NCBI GenBank assembly: GCA_030704615.1
Contig: CM060732.1
Coordinates: forward strand, 49,848,001 to 49,912,000
Direction: 5' to 3'
Source of the DNA: Takakia lepidozioides
Lineage: Eukaryota; Plantae; Bryophyta
DNA length: 64,000 nt
Below are positions 21,311 to 64,000 of the stretch, piece by piece. The notes below the pieces were generated by a model that saw nothing but the letters and a program-made list of their open reading frames with translations, searched no databases and was not told the DNA's origin. The position numbers were made by a program, and so were the translations under genes. Each line of letters opens with the position of its first letter. Position 1 is the stretch's first letter.

Positions 21311-21699
21311 GGACACTAACTTTGTTTTGCTCAAACAATTTATAGACACTCACGACAACAGTCGCAATACTGGGCAATGCAAAAAAAGCCAAGGACCATT
21401 TTAATGTGGACAATGAGGCGTTGATCACTTGCCCGGGAGATGGGCCAAAAAAGATATACATATGTACATGGCTGATCATGAAAGGGTGATCAACTTTGGG
21501 GAAATATAGGGCTCTACGATATTTAAATTCATTGCTTCCAAGGTGGGAAAGGCAAAAGCAAACTAAAGTACAGATCAATGGAACACTTTGCCACAAGGCT
21601 ACGGCAAACAACGTCTTATGAGTACGTTTTCTCTCTCTCAAAAAGTTGTTCAATCTGGCAGGCGCAAAGCATTGGGTCTCACTAAATTTTTCCATTGCA

Positions 21700-23978: not shown

Positions 23979-26549
23979 TTAAACCTCCCTCCTTTTCTTC
24001 TTGCGGCCAGCAAAATTACTAGGTCCCACCGCCCTGGAAGTTCGCTTGACCCTGGTAACCACAAGCATGAACTCAACATTAGGAATCTAGCAGTTGAAGA
24101 AGGGGCTTCCATGAAGCTAAAACAGAGACAGTGCGCTAACAAGGGGATAGTTGAAACCATCACAAAGCGTGCTAATATATATAATACATATGTATTTGTA
24201 CATAAATAGTTGTGTGTGTATATATATATATCCTAAAAGAGAGTTGATCATGCTGGAATTACCGTTCATCAATTTCCTCATCACTGCCACATTCATCCTG
24301 CCTGTCATCTTCTGATACTACATCTGCACAACCACTATACAAGCATAAGGCGCCAGATGGAAGATGGTAACAATGAAAGATGACACCCTCTGCCCCCATC
24401 CCAACTGTCAGACTGCTGTCACCAGTCTCTCTCTACTTCCGTGCACTCCCCAGCAGAAACGCATGCAAAGTGCCCTTCCAGCCTAATGTTGCAAAAATAA
24501 AATCGGGATTTGTTGGAAGCTCACAATCTCATGAACAGAAATAATCTCCAAACTTATTTTTCAGACTAGACAACACTCTTTCACCAATTCACCTTCCGCC
24601 ATCTCGAAATCACTGTCTAAGCTCCCAGCTGCATCCCCTTCACTGGCATCTTCGTCCTGCCAAATTTTCTTTCTCGAACGCGAGCGGGGGGCACTTGACC
24701 AGCGATCAGGGTCCCCTGAGTCGAAGTCCCAGCGCTCACCAAGAGGAGGGATCCAAAAGTCTAAATCCTCCGACTTTGCCTCCCCATCATTCTCCATATC
24801 GGCATTCATATTCACATCCATGTCAACATTGGTGGTCTCACTTGTGTTCCCATCTGTTCTTTCCAGTTCCTTCGTCTTGCCTGTGGACTTCCCATTACTC
24901 CTCTCATCCCCAGCCCCATTCTTGCTTGATGGATGATCCTCCTTCTGAAATACTTGCTTTGAATCTCGAGAACCATTCTGTACACACCTATCTGAAATGA
25001 CATTTGCCTTCTCTTTGTCCTTTTTCTTCTCCTTCTCTCTCTCCTCTGTGATGCAAGCACACATGGTGAATGAGAGAACACCTTGGTAAACTAGTTGTAG
25101 CTGGATACTTCAAAAATCTCTGCTTAACTGGATTTCAAAAGAATACATCATTTGCACAAAAAAGGGAACACTAGTCAGCTGAGGGAGAAAACTCCGCCCA
25201 ATCTAGTATGTTCATTTTACTATAAATTATAACTTAATCCTACGGTCTATGTGTGGGTGCCTGCATTCCAATAAAAGTTAGAATTGAGAAAATTGTCAAT
25301 TTCCAGGAAATTCGTGTTGAAGTACAAAAATAAGAGTTCTAGATGTCGATATACTTGACACATCTTTCAAATACATCCATGCACAAACTGATAAAGTAAT
25401 GACTGTAGCTTATAACCATAATCACCCGCAGTCAGCCTTGAATCAGCCCAGTTAGTGGGTCTGAACAGCCCCTGGTTACAGCTTTCATGTTGACATCAGC
25501 AAACTTGACTTGCCAAACAGTACCCTGACTGCTGAGTTGTCTGTCAAAAGCTTCTAATGTAAATAACAACGGAGAAGGAGAGGGGAGGAGGGAGAAAGAA
25601 TCACCAAGCTTGCGTAGAAACTTCCTGCCCATCATGTGTTTCCAGACAGCTTCTTCCCGCTTGTTCATTATGGCTCCTGTCAATTTGCATACTATCTTGT
25701 CTCTGCATTGTAGATGGCCCCACCCCACCCTCATTCACCTTACAGCTGCTCCCAGGTCACTACTCTTATTATGAGTGAAAAAATCTACCAAGCTATGAGA
25801 TTGACATAGAGAGAGAATTCACAAGAGAAAAAGGATGGAGTAGAGGTCTAGAAGAAAGACAACTGTATGGATCATGCACGGAGACAGATGTTGTCTGCCT
25901 CTAATAAGATACAACTCCTCCCAGCTAGATGACATTCTGAGTAGGGGACTCCACCGCATCCACACTTGGGAAGTAACATTCTATGTCTGAAGCTTTTTCT
26001 TTACCGGGTGTGGGCGAGAGGTAGGCAGACATGTACTCATTTGCTTGCAATAGCATTGTGGAATAGACCTGCACCAATAGACCCGGCCATCGCCATCCGG
26101 TGGTCTCGTGGCGGACTTCGTTTAGAGAAAAGACAGCGACTTTGGCCTTGCCTATGTGTTTTCGTGGTTGTGAGACAACGAGAGATCCACCCAGGTTTGC
26201 TATGCCCTTGTAAACTACTTTTATTACTACTTTTTTTTTTTGAGAGAGAGAGAATGTACTCATAAGACGTTGTTTGCCGTAGTCTTGTGGCCATTGAGAG
26301 AGAGAGAGAGGGAGAGTACCTATACATAGGACTTTGATCAAACAAGTCCAGGGGGGGTCGTCGTTGCGAAAGGGCAACTTCGAAGAGGGCAATCCGGCAC
26401 TTTTTGGTGCCACTATAGCTCGACTTGGTGGCCTCTGGCATCTCGTGCCCAGTCTCTATACACCGAACCCGACCTTTTCCCAGCTCCTCATAGTGCACCT
26501 CGCCAAGCAAATTGCAACCCTCCATGGCATTCTCTGAAGGGGAATCCAT
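23979..26549 (-). CDS. SURF2: Surfeit locus protein 2 homolog
   Basis: Phase-consistent GT-AG exons 26549-26320, 25702-25605, 25045-24593, 24323-24263, 24051-23979. Motifs EG.NLLG, GRVRCIETGHE, CKLTG..NK.EEAVWKH..GRKF, DFW.PP.GERWDFD, C-terminal GPSNFAGRKKK. Confidence 0.9.
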
Positions 26550-36059: not shown

Positions 36060-39000
36060 TATATGGGAGCTTTAGAGCGGAGACAGCAGGGAGTGTTCAA
36101 CAGCATGGCTGAACGAGATGTGGTGTCGCGGAGTGCGATGATTGCAGGATATGCACAGCGGGCGCGGGATGGAGGCTTTGCAGACATATGAGCACCTTCT
36201 TCAACACATTTCAGCCTGTTTTCCCTGTTATCAGGATTCAGAGTCATCCCTAAATTTTCAGGTTGAATTCTGCAAGTTAGCTCGATGTTGGTGCAAAAAG
36301 GTGAATGCATGTTGGAAGCGCAAGTCAGCATAGGAACTAGTGTAGGGTTAGGGTGTTTGCTGGAACAAATCTAGGCTATCATTGTCCGCTGCTACTATGC
36401 ATGATTTGTGCTGAGGTATGGATAGCCGAAGGAGCAGGGCTAGAGTGTGGGTCCAGATTCATCCAAGAGGGCCGGATTTCAAGCTCCAGATTACCTATGA
36501 ATCCCTGTGGAATGATAGCTACAAGAAACCTGCATGCGTAGATGGTCAACTGGAAGCCGCAACAGCAGTAGCGGCGGCACAATTGATAAAATTCAGGTAC
36601 TGCTACTCAAGGCACCTTCTTCAACACATTTCACCCTGTTTTTTCCTCTTATCAGAACCGGTCCTAAATGTCTCTTAAGGCCTTCAGCAGATGGGTTGAA
36701 TAGAGTCACGTGGTTTACTTTTTCAACTTGATTTTCAGATCTTAGGGCATGCGAGAGACAGTGTCAACAATCAATCATTCTTCCTGCAAAGTCTTGGTAT
36801 GCACAATCTGAGACTTGAGATCCTCCACAAAGGCCAGCAAGTTTTTAGTTGAGGATCCACCCTCTGCCATATCCTCATGAGCACAATATTTGAGCTTCCC
36901 TACCCTGGTTCGAATTGCCATGCCCTCCTCCCCTGTCATTAGCTCCCTAATGTGTGCATGATTTGTGCAGAGGCAGAGATAGCTGAAGGAGTAGGGATAG
37001 AGAGTAGGTCTAGATTCATCCAAAAGGGCCAGATTTCAAGTACAAGATTACTTATGATTTCCTGTAGATCAATAGCTACAAGAAACCTGCATGGGTAGAT
37101 GGTCAACTGTCATGCCGCAGCAGCAGCGGCACAACTGATAATATCAGGCACTGGTAATCAAGGCACCTTCTTCACATTCACCCTGTTTTTCCCTCTTATC
37201 AGAATCGGCCCTGAATTTCCATGTTGAATTCTGCAAGTTAGCTGGTTGAGTGAATATAGTTTGGAGTGACTTTGACATGATACTGCCACTGTGACAACAG
37301 GAAAGTATCCAAAAATACGTAACAGAGATGAGGAGAAGCTGTGGAATGAATACTTTTCTGACCCCAGTCAATGGTGGGACACTAGGCAAAAAGGTGACTG
37401 CTTGTTAGATTACATGAGAGTAGCAGACGCAATTCAATATAGGAACTAGTGTAATAAGCTGAGTTGGGTGTTTCCTAGAACAAATCTAGGCTGTCATTAT
37501 CAGCTGCAAGGCAAGGATGTATGCATCATTTGTGCAGAGGCATGGATAGCTGAAGGAGCGGGGATAGAGTGTGGGTCCAGATTCATCCAAGAGGGCTGGA
37601 CTTCAAGCTCCAGATTACCTTGATTTCAGGTGGATCAGTAGCTACAAGAAACCTGCATGTGTAGATGGTCAACTAAACAATATGTCTGTCTGTTGCTTAA
37701 GTGCATCAAGATGGATGGTCTGGAAGCTGGAAAGCAGGTGCACACTCACATTATCCAAAGAGGATTCACACCAAATGTTTAGCACCCTTGTCAACATGTA
37801 TGTTAAGTGCGGGAGCATCATGGATGCTCACCAAGTGTTCAACAGAATGCCTCAATGATCTTTGATCACGTGTAATATTATGTTGGCAGGATTTACCAAG
37901 CGTAGGTGTGGTAGGAATGCTTCGGAGACCTATGAGCAAATGTTGCGCGAAGGGGTGAAGCTCAACCACATCGCGTTTGTTTGTGTTTGCAATGCGTGTG
38001 CAAGCCTGGGAGCTCTGGAAAAGGGCAAAGAGGTCCATAGTGACATTGTCAAAGCTGGAATTGTACCAGATGTCATCCTGGAACAGAAGCGGCAGCAGCC
38101 CAATTGATAGAACAATTCGCTGCTAATGAAGGTACCTTCTTCAATACATTTCACCCTGTTTTGCCATGTTATCTAAGTCGTCTCTAAATTTCATGTAGAA
38201 TTCTGCAAGTTAGCTCGTTCATGATGTGAGCTGGCATGAGTTTTATAAAGATCCTTCACGATGGTGGGACAACCGCAATCACAAGGTGTGGCTTTTCTTA
38301 ATGTACGATGTGAAGAAGTTTGTCCATCCTGCAAAGGTGGGCTCTTGGCTCCTGTTAGTACCATGATTTGGTATTCTTCCTGATGTTTACAAGGTTCTTG
38401 GGAGAGTCAGCTTGGTCTTAGTAGGCCGTGTTTCAATCTCTGCCTGCTCAGCTGCACCGTGGTGGTTCTCACAGACCAATCCAACATTACCTGACTACAG
38501 AGACAAACATCACACACAAGAGGTCATTTTGGGTTGATGCTCGGTCAAATCCTCCATGGGTCAAGGACAATGTGGTGAGGGCACCTTCTTCTTTGACCTG
38601 TTGCAGCCTGTTTTGCCCCCTCATCAGACTTGGCCTGAGATGCATATTGAATTCTGTAAGTTAGCTCATTGGGTGGATCTGTGGTGGTTTGGAGTGACTT
38701 TGAACTAGTGTGATAAGTAGGGTTGGGGTGTTTGCTGGAACAATTCTAGGCTGTCATTGTCAGCTGTTAGCAGCAAGGCAAGGATGTATGCATGATTTGT
38801 GCAGAGGTATGGATAGCTGAAGGGGCAGGGATAGAGTGTGGGTCCAGATTCATCCAAGAGGGCTGGATTTCAAGCTCCAGATTACCTATGATTCCATGTG
38901 GATCAATAGCTACAAGAAACCTGCTGCATGGGTAGATGGTCAAGTAAAGGTAGCAGCTGCAGCGGCACAGTTGATAAAATCAGGCACCTCAACCATGACC

Positions 39001-40345
39001 ACAGCTTCTGAAAGAGGATCAAGAGAGGGAGTCCACAATGCCTCTTCTACTGGGCATGTGAAGATGCTTTGTGAGGCAGGCAGACTGACAGAGGCTCTAC
39101 AACTTTAAACCAACAAGGCATTTCAGCAGATTCAGATATGTTTGTCTGTCTCTTGCTTAAGTGCATGAAGATGAAAGGTCTGGAAGCTGGAAACAGGTGC
39201 ACACTCACATTATCCAAAGTGGATTAACGCCAAATGTTTTTCTACTCAACACCCTTGTCAACATGTATGTGAAGTGTGGGAGCATCATGGATGCTCACCA
39301 GTTTTTCCACAGAGTGCCTCAACGATCTTGATCACTTGGCAGGATTTACTAAGGATGGGTGTGGTAGGAGTGCTTTGGAAACCTATGAGCAACTGCTGCG
39401 CGAAGGGTGAAACCCAACCACATCACATTTGTTTGTGTTTGCCATGCGTGTGCAAGGCTGGGAGCTCTGGAAAAGGGGAAAGAGGTCCATGGTGACATAG
39501 TCAAAGTTGGATTTGTACGAGATGTCATTATGAACACTGCCCTGGTGGTCATGTATGCCAGATGTGGGTGCATTAAGGATGCGAAGGGAGTTTTCAACAC
39601 TATGGCTGAACGAGATGTGGTGTCATGGAATGTGGGGGGAATGTGATGCTTGCAGGGTATGCACAGCAGGGACATGGTATGGAGGCTTTGGAGACCTATG
39701 ATCAAATATTGATGGGGGAAGGGGTGAAGCCCAACCACATCACGTTGCAGCATACTGGTACTTCACAGCCATGGCGGCTCTCTCAACCCCTCTATTTTTT
39801 TTTCCTTTGGTTTTTTTGGCGCTGGGAGAGAGCAGCAGCTTTGCTGTCTCCTTCCCCTTGCTTATGCCGATCGTTAAAGGGGAAATTGTCATTCTGAACT
39901 CTGCCTTGGTGGACATGTATGCCAAATGTGGGTGCAGCAAGCCTGATGTGAAGGGAGAGTTTGACAATATGGCTGAACGAGTTGTGGTATTTTGGAGTGC
40001 CATGATTGCAAGGTATGTGCAGCATGGGTATGGGATTAAGGCTTTGGAAACATAAGAGCAAATGATGTGGGAAGGGATGAAGCCAGACCAGGCCGTCATG
40101 TTCATTTGTTTTTGTAATATGCATATGCTAGCCTAGCAGCCCTGGGAAGGGGCAAAGAGGTTTATGGTGACATTATCCAAGCTGGAATTGTACCAGATGT
40201 CATTCTGAACATTCCCCTGGTGTACATCTACGTCAAATGTGAGCCTGGCAGCCCTCAAAAGGGCACAAAGGTCCATGATGACATCGTCAAAGCTGGAGTT
40301 GTCACTCTAAACACTGCCTTGGTGGATATGTATGTCAAGGCAACC
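36060..40345 (+). pseudogene. Tandemly duplicated, decayed PDF-motif + PLS-class PPR gene array
   Basis: PPR fragments (TLVNMYVKCGSIMDAHQVF, DVVSWN, GVKPNHITFVCVCHACARLGALEKGKEVH) with stops and shifts. Repeated IHPRGPDFKLQITYESLW and WWDNRNHK blocks. Confidence 0.85.
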
Positions 40346-42180: not shown

Positions 42181-42396
42181 TCATAGGTGGGGCTTCAGAT
42201 GACCCATCAAAAAATCATCCTTGTATGGATCTACAAGTGCTTCGTATTTAGGTAGGAAGATGTCCAGGCTCAGAGAATTGAGGAAAGACTTGTACATGTT
42301 CCCAACGACGTCGATAAGCAGGGTGTTAGACATGTAGGCTTTAGAGTCGGGGTCTACAAACAAGTCGTAAAGTCGTTTGAAGTAGATTGGGGCCAA
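42181..42396 (-). pseudogene. C-terminal half of a second FCP1-like HAD phosphatase (split by inversion)
   Basis: PIYFKRL...SNTLLIDV..NMYKSFLN....IF. The N-terminal half is at 46340-46671 on the + strand. Confidence 0.6.
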
Positions 42397-43750
42397 CGAG
42401 CCAAGAGGTTTAGGTGGGAGGGGACACACCTGCTCCGAATATGGGAGGATGGTCGAGTGAGGATTGTGCCTCACCCAACACAGCGGGCACGGTTAGTGCG
42501 GCATGCCCATGAGGAGTTGGGGCATTTTGGGGTGCGACGCACTCATAGTCTACTGCAGGGGCAGTATTGGTGGCGTGGTATGCACACAGAGGTGCAACAA
42601 TTTGTGGCTAGGTGCATGGTGTGTGATAGGGTGTGTGCTTCATTCAAACGCCCCTACTCCACAATTGCACCCTCTTCCGATCATGGGATTGGGCTACAGG
42701 TGGAGTCTTGACTTCGCAGGGCCATTGCCACTGACCATGCGCCACAACAAGTATGTGTTGGTGATGGTGGAGCACTTCTCCAAGTGGATTGAGTTGGTTC
42801 CATTGCCTGATAAGGCTAGTGAGGGAGCTGCGTATGCATTCTTGGATTGTGTGCTTAGCCGATTCGGTGCTCCAGCTGAGGTACTCACGGACCAAGGGAG
42901 AGAGTTCTTGGGGGAGTTTCAGGCTTTGTGTGACAAGGCCTTGATAGACCACCGCACCACTTCTCGGGATCATCCTGAGGCTGATGGCTTGGCAGATAGA
43001 GTTGTTCAGACAGTAAAGAGAGGTTTGCGCAAGTATGGCTTGCAGAAAGGACACCTAGGAGATTGGGACCTTCAGTTACCCTGGTTAGCCATGGGCTATA
43101 GGTTCAGCAAGCAAGCATCACTTGCCTCCTTTTCACCTTACTTTCTTCTCTTCGGCCGAGAGCCGGATTTGCCTACATCCATTCGCAGAGAAGCTGCTAC
43201 AGTTCTTAACCTTGACGATCCGGACGTGTGGGCACGTGCATGTGAGCAGCGTGCAGAGTTGTTCAAGAGAGTCATGCCCATGGCTTTCGAGAACCTTGCC
43301 ATTGCACAACACCGTGATACGTTGAGGTATGCTACCATACGTGGTGGGGGCTATCGTCCTGGGGTTCGGAGATTCAACCCTGGTGACTATGTCTATCTAC
43401 AGCAGACTACTTCTACGACCCTGGATGTGACTGCATGACGTGTTATTTTGAGGGTTCGAGAGGTCTTGCCCTCAGGCGTCTTGGTCTTGGAGGGTCGGGA
43501 TGGCATAACTTGGAAGGACCATGTGCGTAATTGTGCGCCATGTCACCTTCCGAATGTCGATGGCAGGATTGACCCAAACCTAGCAGTGGTATCTGCAGGT
43601 TTGAGGTGCATGTTGTGTGGGTCTGCTAAAGGAGCAGCCACCATGCTGGTGTGTGATCGATGCTCTAGAGGTTGGCATATGGGATGCTTGACTCCACCTC
43701 TTGAGATGGTTCCGGATGGGGATTGGTTATGTCCACATTGCATTGGATAG
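42397..43750 (+). mobile_element. Gypsy integrase (HHCC + DDE core) fused to a C-terminal PHD finger
   Basis: HEELGHFG...CMVC, WSLDF, VLTDQG, ADGLADR (third acidic residue reads D), SPYFLLFGR. One frameshift at ~42645 and an in-frame TGA at 43436. Then C4HC3 CMLC...CDRCSRGWHMGC...WLCPHC. Confidence 0.92.
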
Positions 43751-43998
43751 TGGGAGTGGATACAACCATGGAAGGCTAACAAGAAACGCAAGGCCCAGCT
43801 ACTAGGAGACCTTGAACACACGAGGTCCTGGCTCAAGTTACAGATTGCAAGACGGCGACTAATGATGGGGCTACTCTTGTACCCAGCCTCTTGGTCTATA
43901 GAGTTTGAGTGCAATAGGGGCAGTGATAGAGGACTTAGTACGGCTGTGGCTATCACATCTTGTAGCTATCTGGAGGTAGAGGGACCTACCCACCAGCT

Positions 43999-44009
43999 AG
44001 GGGGGCGAT
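43999..44009 (+). other. Polypurine tract
   Basis: AGGGGGGCGAT immediately 5' of TGTGG at 44010. Confidence 0.6.
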
Positions 44010-44538
44010 TGTGGCAGACTACTTTATTGTGCATATATGTGTGGTATGGTTTGGACAGCGATGTAGTTGTGTAGCGATACGTATGCGCACGACAGCTGTC
44101 AAGTTAAATAAGCACAGTGTGAAAACGACTAGAATAAAGCTAGTTATTTGTACTTAACACTTGGATTTAGGTCAAGTGTTAAGTCAGGTGTCAAGTTTAG
44201 TTTGACACCTGAACCGTCTTATCTTCACGAGAGCGGCAGTCGCGCAGCTCATCTCTCTCGAGTTGAGCCTGCGCGACCGAGCTCCTGCATCGTTTAGGAC
44301 TGAGTGTGCTCATGATGGGAGTGTAGGTTGTTGTGGGGTGGAGTCCCCACAGCTTGGGGTGCCCCTGGCTCGACTTCTGTTTTAAAGAGTGATAGCGATG
44401 GATTTCATATTTCTTGTGTTGGGAGTGTGTGTCCTTTTAGCTTTTCTTATCATTGTGACATACTACTTTATTGTGCATATATGTGTGGTGTGGTTTGGAC
44501 AGCGATGTAGTTGTGTAGCGATACGTATGCGCACGACA
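44010..44538 (+). repeat. 3' terminal repeat block: A (44010-44094) - GC - B (44097-44452) - T - A' (44454-44538)
   Basis: A and A' are 85-bp direct repeats with 3 mismatches. B is the reverse complement of 55701-56056, identical by eye over 356 bp. A-gc-B reads TG...CA. Confidence 0.92.
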
Positions 44539-44960
44539 TCTTCTTGACGCAGAGGTCCTCTTCCAATCTGGTTTCGTACATAAGGTTTGGTGAGGGGCGA
44601 GACAAGTATATTCTGCTTCAGGGGTTGTATCTTCCTGGAGAGTTCGACAATCCTTACATGAGCCGGCCAAAGTCATTTTCAAGGCCACTCATGTGCCTTG
44701 ATTACGTATTTCCTGCTACAGCTGCCCAGATTGAGAACCACGAGGAGCACCTGCAGGGAGTGCTGATGTTCAGCCCCATTTAAACCAGTGATTAAGGCTC
44801 CGGACACTGAGCTCACGAAACACGAGAAAGATTGTGCCGCTTATGAACACGAATTGCGGGCAGAGTCGAACGACTACATTGCGTCCTTGTTCTGTGGCGA
44901 AGGGATGACGGCTGTCAACGTTTTTGGAGGCGTAATGTTAACATCGGCTCTCTACGTAAG
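44539..44960 (+). pseudogene. C-terminal part of the host-transposon gene interrupted at 56057 (amino-methyltransferase motif-I-like end)
   Basis: Removing one TCTT copy fuses ...NAFVF (56057, minus) to FLTQRSSS... in frame. Downstream sequence reads ELRAESNDYIASLFCGEGMTAVNVFGG. Confidence 0.55.
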
Positions 44961-46339
44961 CAATTTCATTTCCATTTCCAATTCGATTTCCATTTCCGAA
45001 ACACATCTTTGGAACCTCGCGCGATCACGCGTTCATTCTATTTACTCAATGGTTGGCATCTTTTGTAGGCTATGAACGTCCGAGTCATCACAACCTGAAA
45101 AAAAAAATTTGCGCGATTAAGGTTGCCGCTAACTACACACTCATCCACACGGAGAATGAGGACGGAACCGAGGTTGGTGATGACACATTGGGAGGGCAGG
45201 GAGACCCACAGGCACAATGGCGAAGGAAATGACGACGACGATGACGATGAAGATGACGGACAAAGAGATTTGGAGACAGAGCAAAACCAGGAAGAAGGTG
45301 ACGGAAACGAAACGTTGGACAAAAATGAAGAACTTGAGGGAGGTGAGGAAGACAAGGGCGACTACCAACACGATGATGTCGTCAACAATTTCTTGCAAGA
45401 GGAGACAGAATAAATTGAGCAAGGCAGAATTCCACCAGCTGATCAAGCAGGGAGGGTAGTACTAGAAGAAAGCCACCATCCACAGGCCCAGACAAATATC
45501 GGTGAATGAGACAATCCCGAGACAACTGTGCTGTCTTCCTCCACTGAAGAAGTGGAGGGAGACAATGTAAAGGATAACGCTGATTCTAGAGACATCTTCG
45601 ATAAGGAGATTTCAGAAATAGACTCAGAGGTGGGATTCAGTCCTGTGGAGGGGGATATGCCATTACGGATATCACCATATCAAGGTTTAAGCCAACGAGT
45701 TAGAGACATCGTTGATGGTCAGGCATCTAGGGCATTGGTCGGCAATCAAAACTCTGTTGACGTGAGTATTGCAGATTATGAGCTGTCCTGACACTTGTAA
45801 AACCCAATTTATAGCAAACTTGATATAACACCAGAATCTTTTACCAATGGAACTAATAACCTATTGCTCTGTGATAGTCTCGTAAATCAATCGAAATATA
45901 TACGGAAGTCTAATCACCCGCATTTTCTGTAGATCCGTGAGTCCAATACGGAGGAAGTGACACATACCAGAACAAACGACACACAACAGCGTACAATGAA
46001 GAAACAATACGACTTGAGAGTGAGAATATTGTCGCCCAAGGTAGTAGCTTCAGAAACCGCGAGCGATCGTGCGAGGTTACTTATGAGACGGGTCGACAAA
46101 AACATACCGAACGGCGAAAGACCCATCGCCGGGGGAATTGGCGGCGAAACCTCATCCGGCTTGGAGCAAGTGCCGCCAAAGCTGGTACTTCATTCTCCGC
46201 CTTCTGTTTTCTTTTCTGCATTCCATTGCGAAAAACTTCCAATGAATTAATAATTATTTCATAATGGGCAAGATGATATGATCTATCCACCACACAACTA
46301 TTCCCAAATTATCAATCCCGCGGATTTCTTTGCTCTTCC

Positions 46340-46671
46340 AATGGGTCCAAATAGATGTCAGCCCGGATATTATGTCCTGGTTTTGGATGTCGGGTTTTAT
46401 GTGAGGTCTACCTCCAGAATGGGCCAAAAACCCCTCCCGCAACGCAGCCTTATATCTCCACTGAAAGATTTAAGTTAGCAATGCGACATGAGGTGTGAGA
46501 CTTCCTCAAATGGGTCGTTAAGAAGTTTTGGGTCATCTTATAGAACACTAGCAAATAAGAGACTGCCGTGGATTTCAAATCAGCCTTGTTCGGGATGAAC
46601 GCCCACAACGTCAAGCATTACAGTTCCGACCAATGTGTGGAACATAGACTTACTTTCAACACATATTGGCC
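46340..46671 (+). pseudogene. N-terminal half of the second FCP1-like phosphatase
   Basis: YVLVLDV.GFLC...MRHEV*DFLKWVVKKFWVIL*NTS, read across a frameshift and stops. Confidence 0.55.
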
Positions 46672-48388
46672 ATCCCTCTCCTTGGCAGTCACAGTGGCTG
46701 CCGTGTCTCCACTGCAGAGGTAGTCCAACACAACTGAATCCTCATGTATATCTTTGGCGCCACCCTGCTCATTGCTGGCCTCAGGGTCCTCAGACACTTG
46801 ATCTACAGTCATCCCTGTTGTAGGTCCAACCTGGCCTTCCGCTGCCAAGATACACAGAAATGCAGATGCATGCCATCCGGGCACCATCTCCTCGTCCGTC
46901 TCACCATGCCACCGAGCTCCAGTGTCATCCTGCTGGCTCGTGCATGGATTGCGACTCAACCCATCTGCATTGCAATTGACCAAACCCGGTCGATGCACCA
47001 CCTGAAAGTCATACTCTTGAAGGATGAGTGCCCACCGTGCAAGCTTCCCCGTAAGTTTGTCTGACTCCATCAACCACTTGAGTGGTTGGTGATCCATGAC
47101 AAGGGTGAAGAGATTGCCGTATAGATAGCACCTGAAGTGTGCCACGGCCCACACTGCAGCTAAGCATTCTCCCTCATATGAGCTATACTTAGACTCTGCA
47201 GCATTGTTCGAGCGGCTAGCATAAGCCACTACGAACTCTCTTCCCTCATCATCCACCTGTGTGAGCACCGCTCCAAGCCCCAGCATGCTCCAATCTGTAT
47301 GCAGCTGAAAAGGACGCCCCCTGATAGGTCGTCTCAACATGGGCGCCGAGGTCAACCTCGCCTTGAGCTCTTGAAAAGCTTGTTCTTGCTCATCTTCCCA
47401 CTGCCACTCCTTGTCCACCTTGGTCAGCTTGGTTAGAGCCTTTGCAATGGCACTAAATCCCTTAACAAACCGTCTGTAATAGTTTGCTAACCCCATGAAA
47501 GCTCGAACTCGGCTCACATCCGTGGGGCGTGGAACCTGTGCAATGGACTCTACCTTAGTCTGCTGTATCCCCAATCCTCTAGGATATATCATGTGACCTA
47601 GATACTCAATCTGGTTGTGGAAAAACTTGCATTTTCCCGGATGTAACTTCAATCCGTGCGCCCTCAAGCGCTCAAATACCCCCTGAAGGTGTCTCTCATG
47701 CTCCTCCACCGTAGCACTAAAGATGATGATGTCATCTATGTAGCACCGAGCAAACTCCACCCCTGCTAGAATCTTGTCCATGACTCTTTGAAACTCAGCG
47801 GGAGCGTTTTTAAGCCCAAATGGTAAGAACCGCCACTGGTATAGGCAACTTATCCGCCTCCTTGATCGGCAACTGGTGATATCCGGATCGTAAATCCAAC
47901 GTGCTAAAGACCTTGGAATGCCCAATGGCATCAAAGATCTCCTCTGGTGTCGGCATGGCATACCTATCGGACTTGGTCTGACGATTTACAGGCCGGTAAT
48001 CACCGCACATACGTCTCTCCGTCCAATTGCCATAGACATCCTTCTTGGCCTGCATCACTGTGGCTGAAACATACTCTCCACCAGAGAGCTCCACCAAACC
48101 TGTCTCCCAGAGATCTTGAGTCCTCATCTGAATCAAAGACCTCTCCATGTCACTGTATCTATAGGGTCTCCGAAAGATTGGCGTGTCAGTGGCCAACTCA
48201 ATACGGATCTCTTGACCCTTCAGTGCTCCCAAGTCCTTCAAATTGAAGGCAAAGCAATTCCTGTAAGCCCTCAGGAACCGCCGTATACGTCGTCTCTCTC
48301 CTCCGGTGACAATGGGTCCAATGTGAGGCTCCCAATTGTCCTCCGTAACTGCAACCTTAAGTCCAGTGGGCTTAGAGGTAGAGGACAC
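46666..48388 (-). mobile_element. Gypsy reverse transcriptase and RNase H
   Basis: RMCGDYRPVN, FSTLDLRSGYHQL, LPFGLKNAPAEFQ, YIDD (~47731-47743), YLGH, LHTDWS..GLGAVL, YASR, DHQPL, ADGLSR. One deletion/frameshift at ~47845. Confidence 0.95.
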
Positions 48389-48587
48389 GTCCCGTGGTTG
48401 CTATGCTGCAACCTCTTGAGCAGTACTCCCTTCTTGCTCAGTCAATGACAAGGCCTCATCCTGCCCCATCATCTCATCATTGAGAACCTCCTCATCCCGA
48501 GAAGAATCCCCAACCTCATCCATCACAGCTGCCTTGGCTGCCAACTCCCTCTGAACCTCGAGCACCTCCCACGTGTGTCATGGATGT

Positions 48588-49709
48588 CTACACCCCGTGG
48601 TCCTCACTCGCTGCCTGTACCATCTCGGCAGGCAGAGAGACCATGAAGGGGAGTGCACTCCGCACTCTACGTTGCTCAGCCATAGCCAAGCTGATAATCC
48701 AGGTCAAGCAATTGAGATCCATTGCTTGCCCCAACACCTGACGTCGTGATGCCTCAGAAAAAGAAGGCACCGCCGTGGTCCCAGTGGAAAACCCCATAGC
48801 CCGTTCTCGCTCGTTGGCATTAGGCTCCACTAACTGCTGCAATTGAGCATCCCACAGAAGGCCAGGTCCACCATCCCGAAAAGCATGGAATCCTGGGAAG
48901 CTGAGCAGTGTAGGTAATGCTGCTCGTGGTTGACCCACCCTGTTGACCACTGCCAAAGGCAAACGGTCATCGTGTCTCACACGTTTAGACTGCCTCCCCG
49001 TGTCCAAAATGCCATCCACGGTGAGGTGTGCTGGCCGCTGCACCCCATCAAATGCACGCTTGAGTAGTGCGGGTGGCATCAAATTAATCCACCAAAGCCG
49101 TGGACGATGAGCCCGTGACCCCACTGCAGCTGCATCCAGCAACACTGCTAACCCAAGCCACGATCGGACTTGATGCACACTGGCCATCACCCTGGCCCGA
49201 GAATCACCCATCAGTGGCACATTCTCCAAGATGTATGTTGGAGATACAGCTTGATGAAGCTGCAAGTAGCGCAAAATCCGCACCATCTCCCAAAACAGAC
49301 CCGTCCTCGAGTCTCGCAATCCATTGCCATGCCCGGCTGATGAATGCCCTTGGCAGGGCCAACCTGCCACTACCAGATCAATGGAGCCAACCTGCTCCAA
49401 ATCCTGCGCCCCCAACAAAGAAATGTCTGCTGGCAAGGCTTGTTGGTATCCACGAACTGCAAACACTGGCAACAAGTCAGGGTATTGCTGTACCAACTGA
49501 GCAACATGGCACAGTGAGACGCGTCGTGCAGTCTCATCCCTCTCCACATACAGGTAACGTCGAACTCGTACACCTGCCTGCAACACTGCAGCCAATCCAG
49601 TGCTGATCCCGCCAAACAAGTCCAGAAGGCATATGCCTTCATCCGGGCACTGCCACACAAGAGGTGTGGTGTCCAATGGCGACAACTGGGGTGGTCCTGG
49701 TGCAATCAC
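48588..49709 (-). CDS. DNMT3-like C5 cytosine DNA methyltransferase domain inside the retrotransposon polyprotein
   Basis: Uninterrupted 373-codon frame with motif I DLFGGISTG, II YVERD, IV GWPCQ (catalytic Cys), VI ENV, VIII SRAHRPRLWW, IX ERERAMGF and X RRQVLGQAM. In frame with gag-PR, separated by one TGA. Confidence 0.92.
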   Translation of the reverse strand: MIAPGPPQLSPLDTTPLVWQCPDEGICLLDLFGGISTGLAAVLQAGVRVRRYLYVERDETARRVSLCHVAQLVQQYPDLLPVFAVRGYQQALPADISLLGAQDLEQVGSIDLVVAGWPCQGHSSAGHGNGLRDSRTGLFWEMVRILRYLQLHQAVSPTYILENVPLMGDSRARVMASVHQVRSWLGLAVLLDAAAVGSRAHRPRLWWINLMPPALLKRAFDGVQRPAHLTVDGILDTGRQSKRVRHDDRLPLAVVNRVGQPRAALPTLLSFPGFHAFRDGGPGLLWDAQLQQLVEPNANERERAMGFSTGTTAVPSFSEASRRQVLGQAMDLNCLTWIISLAMAEQRRVRSALPFMVSLPAEMVQAASEDHGV

Positions 49710-49724
49710 CGCACTCTCCTCCTC

Positions 49725-52136
49725 TCATGACGGTACGAAAGTAATGGCCAACTGATGTCGTGTCATGCCCCGAGCCTGCTCTGATCCTCCCAGAGATGTC
49801 TGTATCTGGAAAGGACAAGGCTCCATATCCGCCTCCATGAGGCCCAAACCTGCAATAGCAGCTCTGCCCAACATCAGTGGCTGAGCTCCCGAGTCCAACA
49901 AGACCCGCAGTGGCCGGTACTTCTTGCCTGCCGGTCCACTCAAAGTGAAAATGTCTCCCTGGTTGTCTAACAAGACAACTCCATGTATCACCATGGCGCG
50001 CTCAAAGGCTGGCCTAGCTGGCAGCTCCGTCAACCTGGCAGCTGCAGCTTGCCATGGCGCAGCCATGGCAGTCTTGACCCTCAAATCCGAGGATCCCTCT
50101 GCCACTATACCTTCCACTAACTCCGCAGAAGATGAAGTGACCTCCTCACTCTCACAGAGTGTTGCTGCTAGTCTTAACACTGCAGCTGGTCTTACCCCCG
50201 ACGTCGCAATCATGGTTGCTGAGAACAGTGGGGCTTGACACACAGAGGTGGCTGCCCCCAACAACACACCGGCTGCACTAGCCTTGGCAGCAGGTGTCAG
50301 TGCTGCACGTGTAGCTCTCCCCAATGGCATAGTAACCTCCGCCTCGGTAACAGTCGGGCGAGAACTAGGTGCCATGGATGGCGTCGACACTATCTCCGCC
50401 AATGTGAATGACTGAGGAAGCCTCGCCTGACGGCTTGCCTCCCCAAGTTGTGGATCCAACTCCACCTCTGCACCTCGTGGCTCAGGAACTCGTGCTGCTC
50501 CTCGAGTCACGGCTGCAGCAGACTCCACCTGCTCTAGTGGTAGTGCTACTCCGCACATAAATCCCATGCCTCCCATATCTCCTCCCTCAGGAGCAGGAGG
50601 TGGACCATCCCGCCTGGGAGCCGGTACCGCCTGAGCTGTAGCCATGGCAGCGAGCCTCTGCTCTAGCTGCTGAAGCCGGTTGGCCATGCCTTGGTCAACA
50701 CCCTGACCTCCGCGTCCTTGGCCATGTTGAGCTTGCCCTTGGCCTGCACCTCGTGCCCGACCACCTCGTCCTCTCTGGGCTGGTCCACCTCGCCCCCGGC
50801 CACCATTGTTCCCTTGGAACTGGCCTGGGTGCAACTCAGGATGCAAGTCATAACACTGGGCATCTCCATGCCCATACTTGCCACAATGCCCACACTGCAA
50901 CTGTGCAGGCTGTACTTGTGTCGGCCTTTTGCCACTCTCTGGGCAATCTCTTTTGACATGGGGTCCTCCACATGTCCAACATATCACCCATGGTTGCTGT
51001 TGGCCTGCAAAAGATGCCACGGGCCTCTGCCCCTGAGGTCCCCTGTAAGCTCCATGGAACTTGGGCTGGGCAACCTTGCCCCCCTGACCACGCTGTTGGG
51101 CAGTACCTTGTGCCTGTGGGCTGGCAGCTGCGCCTTGTGCAAGCATGTCCTTGCCAAATCCAATGGTAACAACTCGCTCCTCCACCATGTTGAGCTCAAT
51201 CCGCTCAACCAGCAGAAACACATCTGCTAATGTGGGTTGGGCTGCTTGTAACAGGGTTGCATCTCGCACCCTTCTCTTGAGCTCCTTGTCCAGAATTCCA
51301 TACCAAAACTGGATTGCCTGAGCTTCAGTAACCCCTTGGGTCACACTTATCAAGCGCCTCATACGAGTGTACGCCTCTCGCAGGCTCTCACTGGGTTTGC
51401 GCTGGAAGTCTTGCAAACTTTGCAGCTTCTCTGTCCGTACACCTTGGTAGTTCCTCCGCAACTCCTGGAAGAACTCCACCACCGGGTTGAATCTAGGCAC
51501 ATGTGTTGTAGTCGTGGCAGGAGGAGTAGTAGCACCTTTTGAACTGGTACCACCTGCAGAAGTACCGGCACTACTTGCTCCACTACTAGTGCTGGCAGTG
51601 GGAGATATTGGTACTGATGCAGCTACTGGTCGCGTCGTACCTCGAGTAATGGAGACGTAGTTAGGTGACCAATACATCCTCCACTCCTCAATCTCTACTT
51701 CATGTCCTCGCCTGAACTCGTGGTAATCGTCCATAGGCGGGCCTTCCAAATGCTGGAACAGTCCCTTCCACGCCATGAATGGGGTGAATAGCTGTGGATT
51801 GCGCATCTGCTGCAAATCACACCAGCTGTCGAACTCCTAGATAAAGTCATCCAACTCGATTGTGCCCACAGCTCCAGAGTACCTACGAGGCCCCTTGGTA
51901 GCTCCATACATCTCCTCCATATCGTCCCACAACAATGGCGAATGAAACTGCACACCTGTTGATGAAGCCTCCGAGTCTGTGTTTGACTCTGCACTAGTTG
52001 AGGGTGGAGGTGAAGGTGGTCTGAAACGAACACCTCGTCTGGTGAACCCACTCTCACTGCTACTGCCTATAGCCGTACTCCCCTCAAAACCCTTGGGTAA
52101 CTCCGTGATGACACTCACAATGTGCACCTCCCCCAC
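49725..52136 (-). mobile_element. Gypsy gag (two CCHC knuckles) + aspartic protease
   Basis: Gag QRKPSESLREAY; CWTCGGPHVKRDC and CGHCGKYGHGDAQC; LLDSGA. In-frame TAG at 51837-51839. The protease C-terminal half appears deleted. Confidence 0.9.
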
Positions 52137-52655
52137 GTGACACTATAGGGCTCTAGTACTAATTCTAATAGTGACACGGGTGGGCACCTGTTGCAGTTTA
52201 AGGGTCATATCCCAATGGCTCAGGGCACCTGCACCTGCATCCACCGCAAGAACTCCTATGGTTGGCTGGTCATCAACCCAGCCTCACCATAGAAGAAACG
52301 CTGGTGGTCTTGCTGGTCATCACTCCAGCCTCACCACCAACAGCATACTCTAGGATTGACCGGTGATCAAATCCGGCCTAATCCCTATGAAAGCAAGCGC
52401 CCACACAAAACCAACATGGCGTACAGTCAAGCATGCAGGTGTTGGGGGGGATCCAAACACAAGAAATCAAAACATCAACACCCCCATACCAAAATCCATC
52501 TGCAGTGTTGACCTGCAGAATATCCCAGCCCAAGACCCCGGACTGACTGGCCTCCACCAAGAGAGGCTTTGGCAACTACAAGTACAAGGTAATGAAAATA
52601 GTACAGAGATGGAGGGGAAGAATAGAAGCCCGACCCAGCAAGATCTAATCCTGAT

Positions 52656-53405
52656 CTATGCTATCAACTGCCAGACTTCTCTCAAAGTGCCTCGCTCTGC
52701 ATGATGGTAAGGTGTAGGAGGTATATCTATGTCCAGAAACCTGCCACTAACCTTGTCCCAAGCTACAGTAGCTCGCTCTAACCAACCCTCCTCCTCTTTT
52801 TGCCAGGTAGAGACAAAGCAACACTCTGCTATCTCCTGCTTACTGAACACTAAAGAAAACAAAGGTAGGGTCTGATAGTCTCTCAACTCGAAAGCTTTGA
52901 GACGGTTGCGGGTGTCCTCATTGTGAATGACTGCATCTCCTTCAAACAGAACAAACTTGTCCTCGCTAATGAACCCCCGCTCGTGGTTGCCTTGTGCAGA
53001 GCGTGTACGGCTGCAACGCTGTATGATTGCATAAACTTGTTCATCTCCTGCTCCTCTGCTCCAGTACACCACGGCCTTGTGGCTGAACACCTTGGTCCCT
53101 GGGGCTGTCTTTGGCTGTGTTCCAAGCCTAGCTTTCACCCACTTTGGTATTTCATTTACAGCTGCAGAACTGCTGGCTCCAACAGAGTTCTGACTGTCCA
53201 AAGCAATATTGAGGCCCTCAACGCCAACTACAGCATTTTGTTGTCCACTGCTAATGCCTGACTCCCAGTATGCAATCAACTCGTCCAACTGTTCTCCACT
53301 CAAATCAGTCTGAGTTCCTTGGGAAACATAAATCTTGTCCCCTTGGGTGCACAGGCTAAGAGAAGAGACCTGCCCTTCAATTACGTCCTCATTTCCCCCA
53401 GCCAT
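52656..53405 (-). CDS. Extra 249-aa ORF upstream of gag, function unknown
   Basis: ATG-initiated open frame on the element strand between the 5' repeat and gag; no recognisable motif. Confidence 0.45.
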   Translation of the reverse strand: MAGGNEDVIEGQVSSLSLCTQGDKIYVSQGTQTDLSGEQLDELIAYWESGISSGQQNAVVGVEGLNIALDSQNSVGASSSAAVNEIPKWVKARLGTQPKTAPGTKVFSHKAVVYWSRGAGDEQVYAIIQRCSRTRSAQGNHERGFISEDKFVLFEGDAVIHNEDTRNRLKAFELRDYQTLPLFSLVFSKQEIAECCFVSTWQKEEEGWLERATVAWDKVSGRFLDIDIPPTPYHHAERGTLREVWQLIA

Positions 53406-53889
53406 ACAAGGAATACATCCCCAGATTTATCTCTCATGTAGACCAGAACAGGTTCTAGAAACAAGATTGTGGATCTTTCATGGCACACTCACACTCTAAA
53501 AATTCCATAGATTTCTAGCAGAGTCCCAAAAACAGAAACCAGGTCTAGATAGGTAGATTTCCCCTTTCTGCAGCTATCCCCTCAAAAACTGAGTCAAACG
53601 GAGCTCATTTGACAAAGATATGACCAACCAGGCTTTTTAAACATTTAAATTAGATAAAAAATGCCCCCTTTTTTTTTTTAACACCAAAACGTTTTTGCCA
53701 TTACAACCTGTTCCCAGGTTATCTACGGGTTCCCGAGGCCGTTCCCCTCCAGGCTTCTCCGGGCACCAAGAGCTCATTAACTCCAAAACTCGACCTCAGT
53801 TGGGTGGGGTATCACACCCTGGAGGCGATTTGCTTTTCTCTGCGCGTGGGCCTGCCTCCTCGAGCTTTCAGGATGGCAAGGCAGTAGCC

Positions 53890-54000
53890 ATGTTTATGGC
53901 ACGCAGGAAGATTCAGAAGGAGAAGGGGCTCGAGCCTGATGAGTTCGAAGAGGCTGTAGCCCAGGCCTTATTCGACCTAGAGACTACAAACCAAGAATTG
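53890..54000 (+). pseudogene. RPS7: Captured fragment of 40S ribosomal protein S7 (eS7) N-terminus
   Basis: [37 protein letters not shown] matches the plant eS7 N-terminus; similarity ends abruptly. Confidence 0.85.
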
Positions 54001-54229
54001 GGGCGATTTCAAGAGCAGATGCACTGCGCAGCACCTTCATGGCTTATGGACAGGCGGCCTGCTGTAATGTGGCCGTCTTTGCATGGAATGCAAGGCCAAG
54101 ACCAGCTTGAAGTTCCATCAACTTGGTCTAATTCGCATCTCTCGCCAGCAATTATTGTTGGCTTAGAATGGTTTCCGCCTTCCTGTTACTGCTCGTGTTT
54201 CTGCCCTGCTGTTGTTGTGCATCGATAGC

Positions 54230-54595
54230 TTCGGCATCTCTCGGGAATCCATAGCGCATGCGTTGCTTGTGAAGCCTTTGGTTCTGGTTAGTCCCGGCAA
54301 TTGCAGCTCAATTCAGCACCAGCTCCGACAAACCGCCTTCTTGCCTCTCCCTCTGAGATCTGCAAGGACGAAATGTGTCGCTTCCAAACCATCAACAAGC
54401 TTGATTTCTGAAGGATTCTGGACTCCTTCATCCAGTGACAGTCACCAAGTCTGGTCCATGAGGAGTGATCTGGAGTTACCCACCTCAACATATGCTTATG
54501 AGGGGCCAATTGCTCAGGGAGGGCAGGGCCCATCACCCATGTTGGCTGAGCGATTCCAAAGCGTGATCACTCAGCTTTTTCAACAACGAATCATT
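54230..54595 (+). pseudogene. CLPP5: Captured fragment of plastid ClpP5 (transit peptide to start of protease domain)
   Basis: VWSMRSDLELPTS...QGGQGPSPMLAERFQSVITQLFQQRII resembles ClpP5 WSIRDDL..PSS...GQGPPPMVQERFQSIISQLFQYRII. No intron in the fragment. Confidence 0.8.
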
Positions 54596-55537
54596 CCACC
54601 TTGGCTGGCCGATACTGCCGTTCCAGCTGGAGTCGGCATTTTGTGTCTTCACAAAACCAAACAAAACCAAACTGCAGGAATTTGCGATTGCCTCAGTAAA
54701 GTGGAACTCAATTTGCAGCCGCTGGTGCAATGGGACCTTGCCAAGCAGCCCCTTCTTGATGTCAATCTGCAGCTCGCGCAGAGGAAGCGCAGCAAGAAAA
54801 ACTCCTTCACAAATTGACGGCAGGCACCTCTTCCAACATGCACCACATCAGCAGCAGCAAGGTCCAAGCCATTGGGTTTTTCATCAGAGGCGACAAGTGC
54901 AGTTACTGGGGAAATCTGTTCACCCTCAGCCTGCAGGTCCCCCTTTCTATATCAATTGCTCATACAACCCTTCTTAGAACCCTGTGTAGGAGCTTTCCGG
55001 ATGTTTTTCCCTGCAGCCATGACGGACACTGTGAACGGGAGCTTGGCCTTCAACGCTACTGCCTGTGTGCGCTTCGAACATACGATTGTGATCTGCACAC
55101 CAAGCCAAGGTATCTGCCACCGTACTCCCCCGCTGCACGGATGGCATGCAGCTCAATCTTTCAACCCGTTTTCTTCTGGTGGAATTCCGGCTCAAGCAGG
55201 GAGCTATTTCTGGAGCTCGTGCTTACCACCCTCCTACAACTGGCAACGAGAGAAACCCTACCAGCTGCTATACGACAGTGGTTTCAGGACCTTCGTCCAA
55301 GTAGCTATGGATCCTTTACCCTGCACAGCCTTTCGACAAGATCATTGCGATCGAGGTCTGTCCTCAGAACCTCGCACTCGAACTAGATCGCAGCTTGCTT
55401 CCGCAGGTAGCTTTCAAGCGTGGAATCCCGTCTTCCCCTTTCAATCATAGGTTATGGTGAACACATTCTTCTGCTGCCCCCCGAATCAACTTCCTCCAAA
55501 ATACATCGCTCCTGTGCAACAACAACAAAATGGAAAA

Positions 55538-55624
55538 CGCTTCTTGGACGAGCTTGGTATGGCTTATGACAAGTTGGAGAACCACGTTGTCATCAAGCAT
55601 GCCGCTCTCTTCACCTCGACCATC
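55538..55624 (+). pseudogene. THI1: Captured fragment of thiamine thiazole synthase
   Basis: [29 protein letters not shown]; [12 protein letters not shown] is the THI1/THI4 signature. Confidence 0.85.
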
Positions 55625-55700
55625 GACATAGTGCTAACATAAAAGAACTCTATCTAGCTTAGCACTACAAGAAAACTAGATACAGCTGATCTATCTCGAG

Positions 55701-56056
55701 TGATAAGAAAAGCTAAAAGGACACACACTCCCAACACAAGAAATATGAAATCCATCGCTATCACTCTTTAAAACAGAAGTCGAGCCAGGGGCACCCCAAG
55801 CTGTGGGGACTCCACCCCACAACAACCTACACTCCCATCATGAGCACACTCAGTCCTAAACGATGCAGGAGCTCGGTCGCGCAGGCTCAACTCGAGAGAG
55901 ATGAGCTGCGCGACTGCCGCTCTCGTGAAGATAAGACGGTTCAGGTGTCAAACTAAACTTGACACCTGACTTAACACTTGACCTAAATCCAAGTGTTAAG
56001 TACAAATAACTAGCTTTATTCTAGTCGTTTTCACACTGTGCTTATTTAACTTGACA
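55701..56056 (-). repeat. 5' terminal repeat (B only) of the DNMT-Gypsy element
   Basis: Starts TGTCAAG at 56056 and ends TATCA at 55701; preceded by TCTT, the same 4 bp found at 44539-44542. Confidence 0.92.
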
Positions 56057-58255
56057 AAGAAAACAAATGCATTGGGGCTCAGCTGTTGTTCGAAGAACGC
56101 ATCGAAAATATTCTTGTAATTTCTTTGCATAAAAACATTTGAGTCATCGTCACAGACTGTGTTGACGAACACCATTGTGATGTTATCGAAATCCCTCTTT
56201 CTCACAATTTTCAACTGTGTTTTGGCATCCGTGAACCTCCGCTTCCCTCCTATGCACTGGCAATGTGACTTGAAGGTATCCTTGAGGTTGCCCATTTCCT
56301 TCTCCATGTTTTCAACCATTTTCTTACATGAAAGCACGTATTTGATGAAAGCGTCACTCACTTTTTCGGTCTTCATGTTCACTTTGCTTTTCATGTATTT
56401 GGCCCCCAGTTTCGATCGGAATGTCTCGAACTCCGACTTGTTGAACTTGTACATTTTTTTCACTTCGAGCCATTGTGCTTTTGTGTACGGCTCTGGATGC
56501 GGCTTGCTTCTGGCATCAAATCCCAATACCACCATGACATCATCGATTATAAACCCTCTATCCTTTATTCGATCGATGTAATCGGATAGACAGAGAATCT
56601 TGGGGTCTTTTCCCTTGTAAGGACCACGAACATAGATCTTCAAGTCCAAAATCTTTTGCGCAACCTTCTTCATTTGAAGGGTGTTCAATCCTTGGAGTTT
56701 GCAGACTGCAGATTTTTTGAGCTGCAATTGTACACCCTTGTGCTTCTTACCGTTAATGTCCAGGAGGGTTCCCTTCTCCCACTCTCTGAAAACCTCCTGC
56801 CACTTCTCCCAAACATCGTCATTGCAAAGGACCAAGGTCATGGCCTCCTTAAACTCTAAGCATCTCCAATATAAGTTGTGAGGCTTGCAAAAATTCTTGG
56901 TCAACAGGAACAGCATGTCAGGCCAACACACAACAGGGACACACAGTTCTAGTGAATGTACAACAAAACATTAAACAATAAAGGAAGTCTAAATAATTAC
57001 CTTCCACTGAACGGTTTCAGATTTGGAAACGTTATCGTTGAATTTCTTGGGCTTCCCCCTCAACTCATAGTACATTCTGGCGTGAGCAACTTTCTCCGGG
57101 AATGTTGTTTCGAATTTTTGGGCTTTATTTGGGTTGTTCAGGAGCTTAGAAATCTTCAGCAATCGATTATTGCTATCTGACTAGAGGATAATTGATGGTC
57201 GTTCGGCGTAGTAGTCCCTCTGCTCCCGGTCAGTAATCTTCTCCACAAGTTCTTGATTTGGAAAATGTTACATCGGCATGGAATTGAACTAGAAAAGAGC
57301 ACGCGCGATTGCGCGAGAATAATAATGAGGCAACGCAAAGAAATATTCGAAAGATGATTATCATAGAAGTAGAGAAGAATATAGAAGCACGCGCGATGCG
57401 CGAGGTAAACGTTGATATACTATACCTTTGCAGCCATAATTGTGTGTTAGCCTCCAATTACGAAGAATTTTGAATTGTTAATATCCTTCTGATGCCTTGG
57501 TTTCATCGCAGACACCTGGGTTGGCTCCTGTTCGTTCCTCGGCGCCAGATACACGGGATGTTTCGTATCTAGAACCCGCAACTGGTACAGACGGGCTTTT
57601 ACTTCATCTTTGTGATTAATATTCAGCGGACGATACACCATGCTTCTTGGAGCAAGTTCCATCATTGAGATGTCAATTGAGATTATGTGGTTGAACCCAA
57701 AAGATGTTTACCTTTACTTTTTACCCCCTTCGTTGCCGCATCGTCTCGTTGTTTTCTGTTGATGTTTCCCTGCGCATGGAGTACATCTTGGAAAATGCTC
57801 CAAGCTTGTACGAATCCCTGAGCAGTCAGGGCTGCACCACCTTCAGGGAAAGTGAATCCCATCTTTACAGCTGGTTTCATCATTGCCTTGCGAACGCGGC
57901 GAGATTCTAGAGAAAAACCAAACGTCTTTTTCGCTCTACCATCTTCCAAAATGAAAACCACCATCATTGGATTCTCCACGTCCGACTCCATCTCAACATC
58001 TTTAACGTTGCCATAATTAATCTCCTTCACCTCCGCTCCAATCTTGAAGGAAAACTTCAATTGGTGGTCAGGAGGTACACCCACAGGATTTATTCCCCAC
58101 TCGGAGATCGTCTGGTTAAGAGTATACAAAGCTACGTGGTCTATGCTGAAGTTTGGCGATTTTGTTGAGATGAACTCCCCACATATCTCCTTGCATACGC
58201 CAACCAGGCAATCCGCCAGTATGTTTGACTGACCACTGAACATGAAACACAACAT
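56057..58255 (-). pseudogene. Multi-exon transposon cargo gene with a ParB-like N-terminal region, interrupted by the Gypsy insertion
   Basis: YRPLNINHKDEVKARL...FFVIGG*HT (GGQH with a CAA>TAA change), a GT-AG-bounded exon at ~57001-57177 and a long exon at 56931-56057. Confidence 0.5.
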
Positions 58256-63854: not shown

Positions 63855-64000
63855 AACAGGGAAGGTCCCAAAAAATATAGAATTCGGAAAGTGGTAAAAA
63901 AAAAAAAAACTACCTCATTACACTCCTCATGAATTTTTTTCTAGTTCAGTTCAGGTGGCAGAACTCGAAGAGTATCTCTCCGTCCGTCTCCAATACATCG

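Follow-up and report, generated by a model that had tools for sequence, protein, structure and literature searches.

It has long been asked, for both retroviruses and retrotransposons, whether LTR circles are dead ends or serve as genuine intermediates of integration. In the IS3 family, an rve-type DDE enzyme cuts a circle junction at which the ends abut across a short spacer; these are DNA transposons, whose transposase makes the circle, and no reverse transcription takes place. Palindromic 2-LTR junctions are cut by the foamy virus (PFV) integrase (PMC1180852), and cleavage of the 2-LTR circle junction has also been described for HIV (PMC1905944, PMC4372172). Self-priming was reported for the Ty3 elements Tf1/Sushi and Tcn1 (PMC6317226), and split direct repeats in the order A1...B1-A2-B2 for Ngaro and PAT (PMC6681497). 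In Klebsormidium, KnitGypsy-Dnmt3 combines gypsy domains and a DNMT in pol with DIRS-type repeats in the order A-coding-B-A-B (Fig. 4c legend, PMC5890265). The sections of that paper treating the element concern Klebsormidium only and describe no att palindrome, target-site duplication (TSD), self-priming, short form or mechanism. The name 'KnitGypsy' was found only there in the literature searched, and a streptophyte Gypsy-DNMT3 is merely named in the relevant part of bioRxiv 10.64898/2026.05.21.726589. No description of an internal att palindrome or of an internal-cut route in a Ty3 element was found, subscription papers and Repbase reports lying outside the search.

The split-repeat element of the window

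The window analyzed in this study, a 64,000-nucleotide stretch of contig CM060732.1 from Takakia lepidozioides (GCA_030704615.1, positions 49,848,001 to 49,912,000), contains a decayed Ty3/gypsy copy with several stops and frameshifts, which reads B-internal-A-gc-B-A' with a TCTT target duplication. The 5' B repeat (55701–56056, −; 356 bp) starts with TGTC and forms the left end of the element, and is 100% identical to the 3' B repeat (44097–44452, +). The A repeat (44009–44094, +), which ends with GACA, and A' (44453–44538, +), whose GACA forms the right end, are 86 bp each and mismatch at 3 of 86 positions. By sequence comparison, TCTT stands before TGTC at 56057–56060 (−) and again after GACA at 44539–44542 (+). 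The copy thus begins at B (56056) and ends at A' (44538) between two TCTT copies, exactly as the original prediction had stated. The further claim that removing one TCTT restores a host reading frame also held, as the interrupted flank frame (5' part about 56057–56970, −, in a frame from 55996; 3' part 44543–44783, +) then stays open for 79 more codons, and a Pfam scan of it was blank. A DUF7869 transposase-like gene lies at 62466–63914 (−) in the same window, so the insertion target may itself be a mobile element.

Further features were seen elsewhere in the window, namely a single-exon 1045-aa frame with a class 3 lipase domain (17064–20201, +), inverted repeats of about 50 bp at 21590–21644, 22857–22903 and 26237–26297 that bound 3.3–4.6 kb and resemble DNA-transposon ends, and a degenerate repeat cluster (36088–40338) with a PPR-like translation, as judged by eye, and interspersed non-coding repeats.

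The sequence GACAGCTGTC occurs once in the window, starts at 44091 and spans the A|B boundary. Its palindrome GACA-GC-TGTC (44091–44100) places the right and left ends of the element head to head with a 2-bp spacer, and the GC that is missing between the integrated ends is its centre, as had been proposed. The B|A' junction of the window joins B to A precisely, the two sharing a 1-bp A; the separate T earlier placed between B and A' is in fact the first base of A'.

In the internal region, Pfam detected gag (weak), C5 DNA methylase, reverse transcriptase and RNase H on the − strand, and an integrase zinc finger, rve and PHD on the + strand. A long 5' region (52143–55688, −), of which only a 30-bp stretch matches relatives, is followed by a gag and protease-like region interrupted by stops (49725–52142, −; Retrotrans_gag weak, and Asp_protease weak in the related locus L081), a C5 cytosine methyltransferase domain (48588–49724, −), a frameshifted reverse transcriptase and RNase H (46672–48400, −), a frameshifted integrase with H2C2 zinc finger and rve core (42397–43438, +) and a PHD finger at the integrase C-terminus (43439–43750, +), where a chromodomain gave no match. 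A ribosomal protein S7e fragment (53908–54003, in the + strand frame 53641–54228) lies antisense to the element within the 3.5-kb 5' region; it was not found in related loci and may be a captured or nested sequence. In the near-intact L081, one in-frame TAG (3489–3491) separates gag-protease-DNMT from RT-RH-INT-PHD, which suggests stop-codon read-through or a separate start, and the window frames are interrupted at a similar place.

The gag-PR-RT-RH-INT order with an rve integrase, the TG...CA termini with a 4–5 bp TSD, and the PBS after U5 and PPT before U3 all agree with Ty3/gypsy, while the two complete terminal LTRs with att at their edges that are canonical for the group are absent. Among solved sequences, Ty3 Gag-Pol comes closest to the integrase profile. 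The D-D-E triad is retained in most of 32 aligned integrase proteins; at the third catalytic position, 28 of 31 relatives carry E and the window copy D. Scans for a tyrosine recombinase found none in 20 window frames or in another 66 taken from the window and from four related loci (the near-intact L081 included, the L067 frames left out), and a hidden recombinase was rejected on this basis.

The two halves of the element face opposite ways because an inversion of about 4.3 kb (about 42391–46671) split it after insertion. Both breaks carry a 6-bp microhomology (GGCCAA at 42391–42396, TTGGCC at 46666–46671), and about three codons of the RNase H-integrase linker are missing at the inversion compared with relatives. 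After it, the B copies stand as 100% identical inverted repeats 11.2 kb apart; a similar picture would follow from an excised circle reinserted nearby. The window copy is atypical of its relatives in that A and A' differ at 3 of 86 positions and the Bs at 0 of 356 (p = 0.007); our guess is that the B copies, now in inverted orientation, were made identical by conversion or by polishing. The inversion and the anomalously identical Bs would suit an assembly artefact, or an ordinary LTR element that on a single occasion integrated aberrantly or was rearranged. Such an accident is, however, very improbable, as the same ends and TSDs recur in many independent insertions of several families and the same repeat order was reported in Klebsormidium.

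Element ends and the internal palindrome in related loci

Copies were surveyed through sequencing-run contigs and through 86 related loci, comprising the best 80 of 512 metagenome matches from an integrase-alignment scan and six genome-collection contigs, onto which A and B references from several families were mapped. These loci are short-read metagenome contigs, in which repeats can collapse in assembly. Named relatives are Calypogeia fissa (integrase identity up to 84%), Marchantia polymorpha, Sphagnum fallax and Klebsormidium nitens (57–58%); viral contigs searched by DNA pattern and by protein gave nothing.

A right end was recognizable in 58 loci, or 50 after merging shared flanks, and all 50 of these independent right ends stop at the end of A. 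They comprise 26 long forms (A-gc-B-A'|flank) and 24 short forms (PPT-A|flank, that is, B-internal-A). The terminal 4-mer was GACA in 35, AACA in seven, TACA in two, GATA in two, and GAGA and AATA in one each, so that 48 of 50 carry GACA or a decayed variant, and the other two have an offset coordinate or an indistinct end. The 28 loci without a classifiable right end reflect contig ends, deletions or unrecognized repeats. On the left side, 14 clear and independent ends begin with B; A lies upstream in none of them, nor in two degenerate left ends. The complete B-internal-A-B-A' pattern was found in nine related loci. The original prediction had proposed to check whether other copies share these ends, which they do; the ordinary A-B...A-B LTRs that it had named as contrary evidence (flank|A-gc-B or A-gc-B|flank) were found in none of the 86 loci. 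Two loci, L009 and L081, read PPT-A-gc-B-PBS and could result from assembly collapse, the termini of L081 overlapping by 127 bp; they were rejected as normal LTR copies, no host flank adjoining A or B.

The expectation of 4-bp duplications was borne out in part. Among 12 two-ended copies, seven have a perfect 4-bp TSD (L007, L011, L015, L023, L052, L067 and L069; five long, two short), two are off by one transition, a solo B-A' copy is off by two, and L030 and L031 have none. A solo B-A' copy with TGTC/GACA ends (L080:2457–2964, −) represents the solo-LTR equivalent of the clade. The mirror isomer, B-A-gc-B-PBS...PPT-A, was seen at none of the 14 clear left ends, nor at either of the two degenerate ones (0 of 16 in all).

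Similar ends were found in public contigs of the window's own family, in which depth drops about 500-fold past 44538. Dozens of contigs leave A after GACA (44094) for unrelated flanks, at least 22, 24 and 20 in three runs of one sample, and at least 7–8 more per run leave A one base later. The flanks after 44094 are long and mutually unlike (agreement 0.38–0.39). A second study gave one right end and one left end at 44097 among the matches listed. The best-matching sample may be the window's own source and hence not independent of it, whereas the metagenome families are independent.

The GACA-GC-TGTC core is common to families without detectable similarity in A or B. The A|B spacer is 2 bp in all 32 junctions (GC 11, AC 11, AT 5, GT 4, AA 1), that is, GC or its decay products. 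Two loci at 50–54% integrase identity carry perfect palindromes of 16 and 20 bp about 50–60 bp after the PPT (L083:4608–4623 and L084:2780–2799, respectively), in which PPT, A and palindrome are present and A' is not; their contigs are GC-rich and probably eukaryotic, in prokaryote-labelled assemblies. We regard the relocated att sites as a real, conserved, clade-wide Ty3/gypsy feature, and the putative use of the internal att palindrome by the DDE integrase is well supported.

Priming, junctions and the route of integration

In every family, as predicted, a G-rich PPT (in the window 43999–44008, +) precedes A and a PBS follows B. B-A' was therefore rejected as the replicative LTR; instead, A would be the 5' part of U3, and 5' B would contain the 3' part of U3, R and U5. 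The TG...CA form attributed to the replicative LTR holds on the A side in the window and fails in other families, A starting with TG-like bases only in some of them; the replicative LTR edge is thus not a conserved att.

The 12 bases after 5' B (55689–55700, −), which abut it, complement a site 155–183 bases into B, with 11 of 12 bases pairing in the window (55891–55902, −, the predicted transcript 5' end) and 12 of 12 in L007, L030, L047, L009 and L081. The self-primer sequences differ among four families, with covarying pairing in three families besides that of the window (compare L009 and L081). In 7 of 17 copies tested, which are decayed, pairing was not clearly above shuffles. The complete self-complementarity with covariation led us to reject tRNA priming and points to self-priming at the PBS. 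Since the self-priming site lies within B, the palindrome is placed inside U3.

Among 12 copies compared within one family, an element's own A and A' have private non-deamination variants in common, the A/A' transversion distance is 0.012 within and 0.024–0.025 between elements, and no fixed difference separates the A set from the A' set. Together with B/B and A/A' divergences of similar size in eight complete loci, these results indicate that A' is recopied from A. The B|A' junction falls into seven types among 14 copies of one family (no insert in four, AT in five, and A, T, ATT, AG or a deletion); the inserted bases correspond to the beginning of the PBS or to the G of the PPT, and both common types are found in more than one subfamily. 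In the window's family, one joint runs from the B end into the PPT, of which a part is kept. Such variety with PBS and PPT remnants suggests that cDNA ends are joined anew in each cycle.

These observations bear on a templated route of the Ngaro/PAT type, in which the RNA runs through A', the terminal junction is templated by the internal A-gc-B, and a new copy receives its B|A' join and its A' from the parent element. It would match the repeat order of Ngaro, PAT and VIPER as given in PMC6681497 and would account for the single isomer. We nevertheless regard it as unlikely, because A' tracks its own A rather than other A' copies (a pattern that post-insertion A/A' conversion could also produce), the junction types, which contain traces of PBS or PPT, reappear in different subfamilies, the self-priming PBS and the PPT define a normal LTR cycle, and the frames scanned hold no recombinase.

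The route we favor, and consider fairly probable, is that an ordinary two-LTR cDNA has its ends joined in a circle, and that the DDE integrase then cuts the internal GACA-GC-TGTC palindrome. Transcription would start about 155 bp into 5' B and the RNA 5' end would prime on the PBS adjoining B, as the observed complementarity suggests. Minus- and plus-strand transfers would then yield a linear A-gc-B...A-gc-B, consistent with the PBS, the PPT and an A' recopied from A. Host end-joining may fuse the B end to the A start and leave the variable PBS/PPT remnants seen at the junctions; the joining would precede integration, in a circle, rather than just follow it. Finally, integrase would nick each strand of the PBS-side palindrome behind its CA; the two resulting 3'-CA ends, with overhangs of 2 nt, would then be inserted with a 4-bp stagger. 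Cutting after CA on both strands would give processed-type ends and lose the GC, matching the observed ends, lost GC and TSD. Of the original proposal, a DDE element integrating through a circle at an internal att site, the att site is thus well supported and the circle is the conjectural part.

The short form, B-internal-A, is predicted to be a dead end and may derive from one-LTR circles, double cutting, later recombination (A × A') or assembly collapse. A 2-LTR circle has two equal palindromes and should also give the mirror isomer, so its absence counts against the circle route; possibly the left LTR, as the first stable duplex, captures the integrase, or the short form is what remains once a mirror product collapses. 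Its main rival is a linear route, in which integrase assembles on the left-LTR internal palindrome of the linear cDNA and strand transfer attaches the two ends created by the cut to the chromosome; only then would host repair join the remaining cDNA termini, B on the right and A on the left. This predicts the same product, the same junction variety and A' equal to A. Repeat annealing during repair would give the short form and could erase the mirror isomer, because B (270–360 bp) offers longer homology than A (86–179 bp), so that the many short forms and the missing isomer could both be explained. The linear route, however, would have to break the chromosome each time the element inserts, whereas most TSDs and ends look clean, and we consider it a distinctly less likely, though serious, alternative.

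If circle cutting is true, DNA circles, usually seen as dead ends, would become a normal insertion route. Throughout the clade, insertion appears to require both the joining of cDNA ends and a cut at a head-to-head att pair inside the LTR. It is slightly favored, as one joint reading, that this is a widespread green-lineage Ty3 clade, with members in Marchantia, whose att moved into U3 and for which end-joined LTR circles are the obligatory integration substrate; this would be a third, DDE-catalysed insertion mode of LTR elements, one that produces Ngaro-like split repeats and could serve as a model for how such repeats originate. With its defined 10-bp substrate and Marchantia relatives, the clade makes the circle question testable. 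LTR finders that require two full terminal repeats would probably mis-delimit or miss these DNMT- and PHD-carrying elements.

Comparison with known systems

The repeat architecture has been noted once before; what appears new is the att palindrome together with the TSDs, the self-priming, the short form and the evidence from junctions. The suggestion of a possibly undescribed mode needs qualifying as to the repeat order, which the Fig. 4c legend of PMC5890265 states, and stands for the att site and mechanism, which the sections on the element do not mention. The window element resembles KnitGypsy-Dnmt3 in its C5-DNMT domain in the polyprotein region and its A-coding-B-A-B repeat order, and differs in that the relatives found here come from liverworts, Sphagnum and many metagenome contigs. 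Its integrase is 57–58% identical to two Klebsormidium proteins, kinship being compared by integrase identity alone.

Similar to Ngaro, PAT-like, VIPER and TATE elements, the window element has split direct repeats, whereas it carries a DDE integrase instead of their tyrosine recombinase, together with TG...CA ends, a 4-bp TSD, a PPT and a PBS; split direct repeats therefore need not mean a tyrosine recombinase. As far as the available accounts of Tf1/Sushi and Tcn1 go, the self-priming PBS adjoining U5, the distribution in non-seed plants and the rve integrase with a C-terminal chromatin reader are shared with them. In contrast, the window element has a PHD finger rather than a chromodomain at the integrase C-terminus and a DNMT domain, and its att lies inside U3 rather than at the LTR edges. 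Cleavage of the retroviral 2-LTR junction, in the cited descriptions, offers the parallel of an integrase cutting palindromic head-to-head ends. In retroviruses it is the joining of two LTRs that creates the palindrome, and a normal provirus results, whereas in the window element the palindrome is pre-encoded in each LTR, and the join lies elsewhere and is imprecise.
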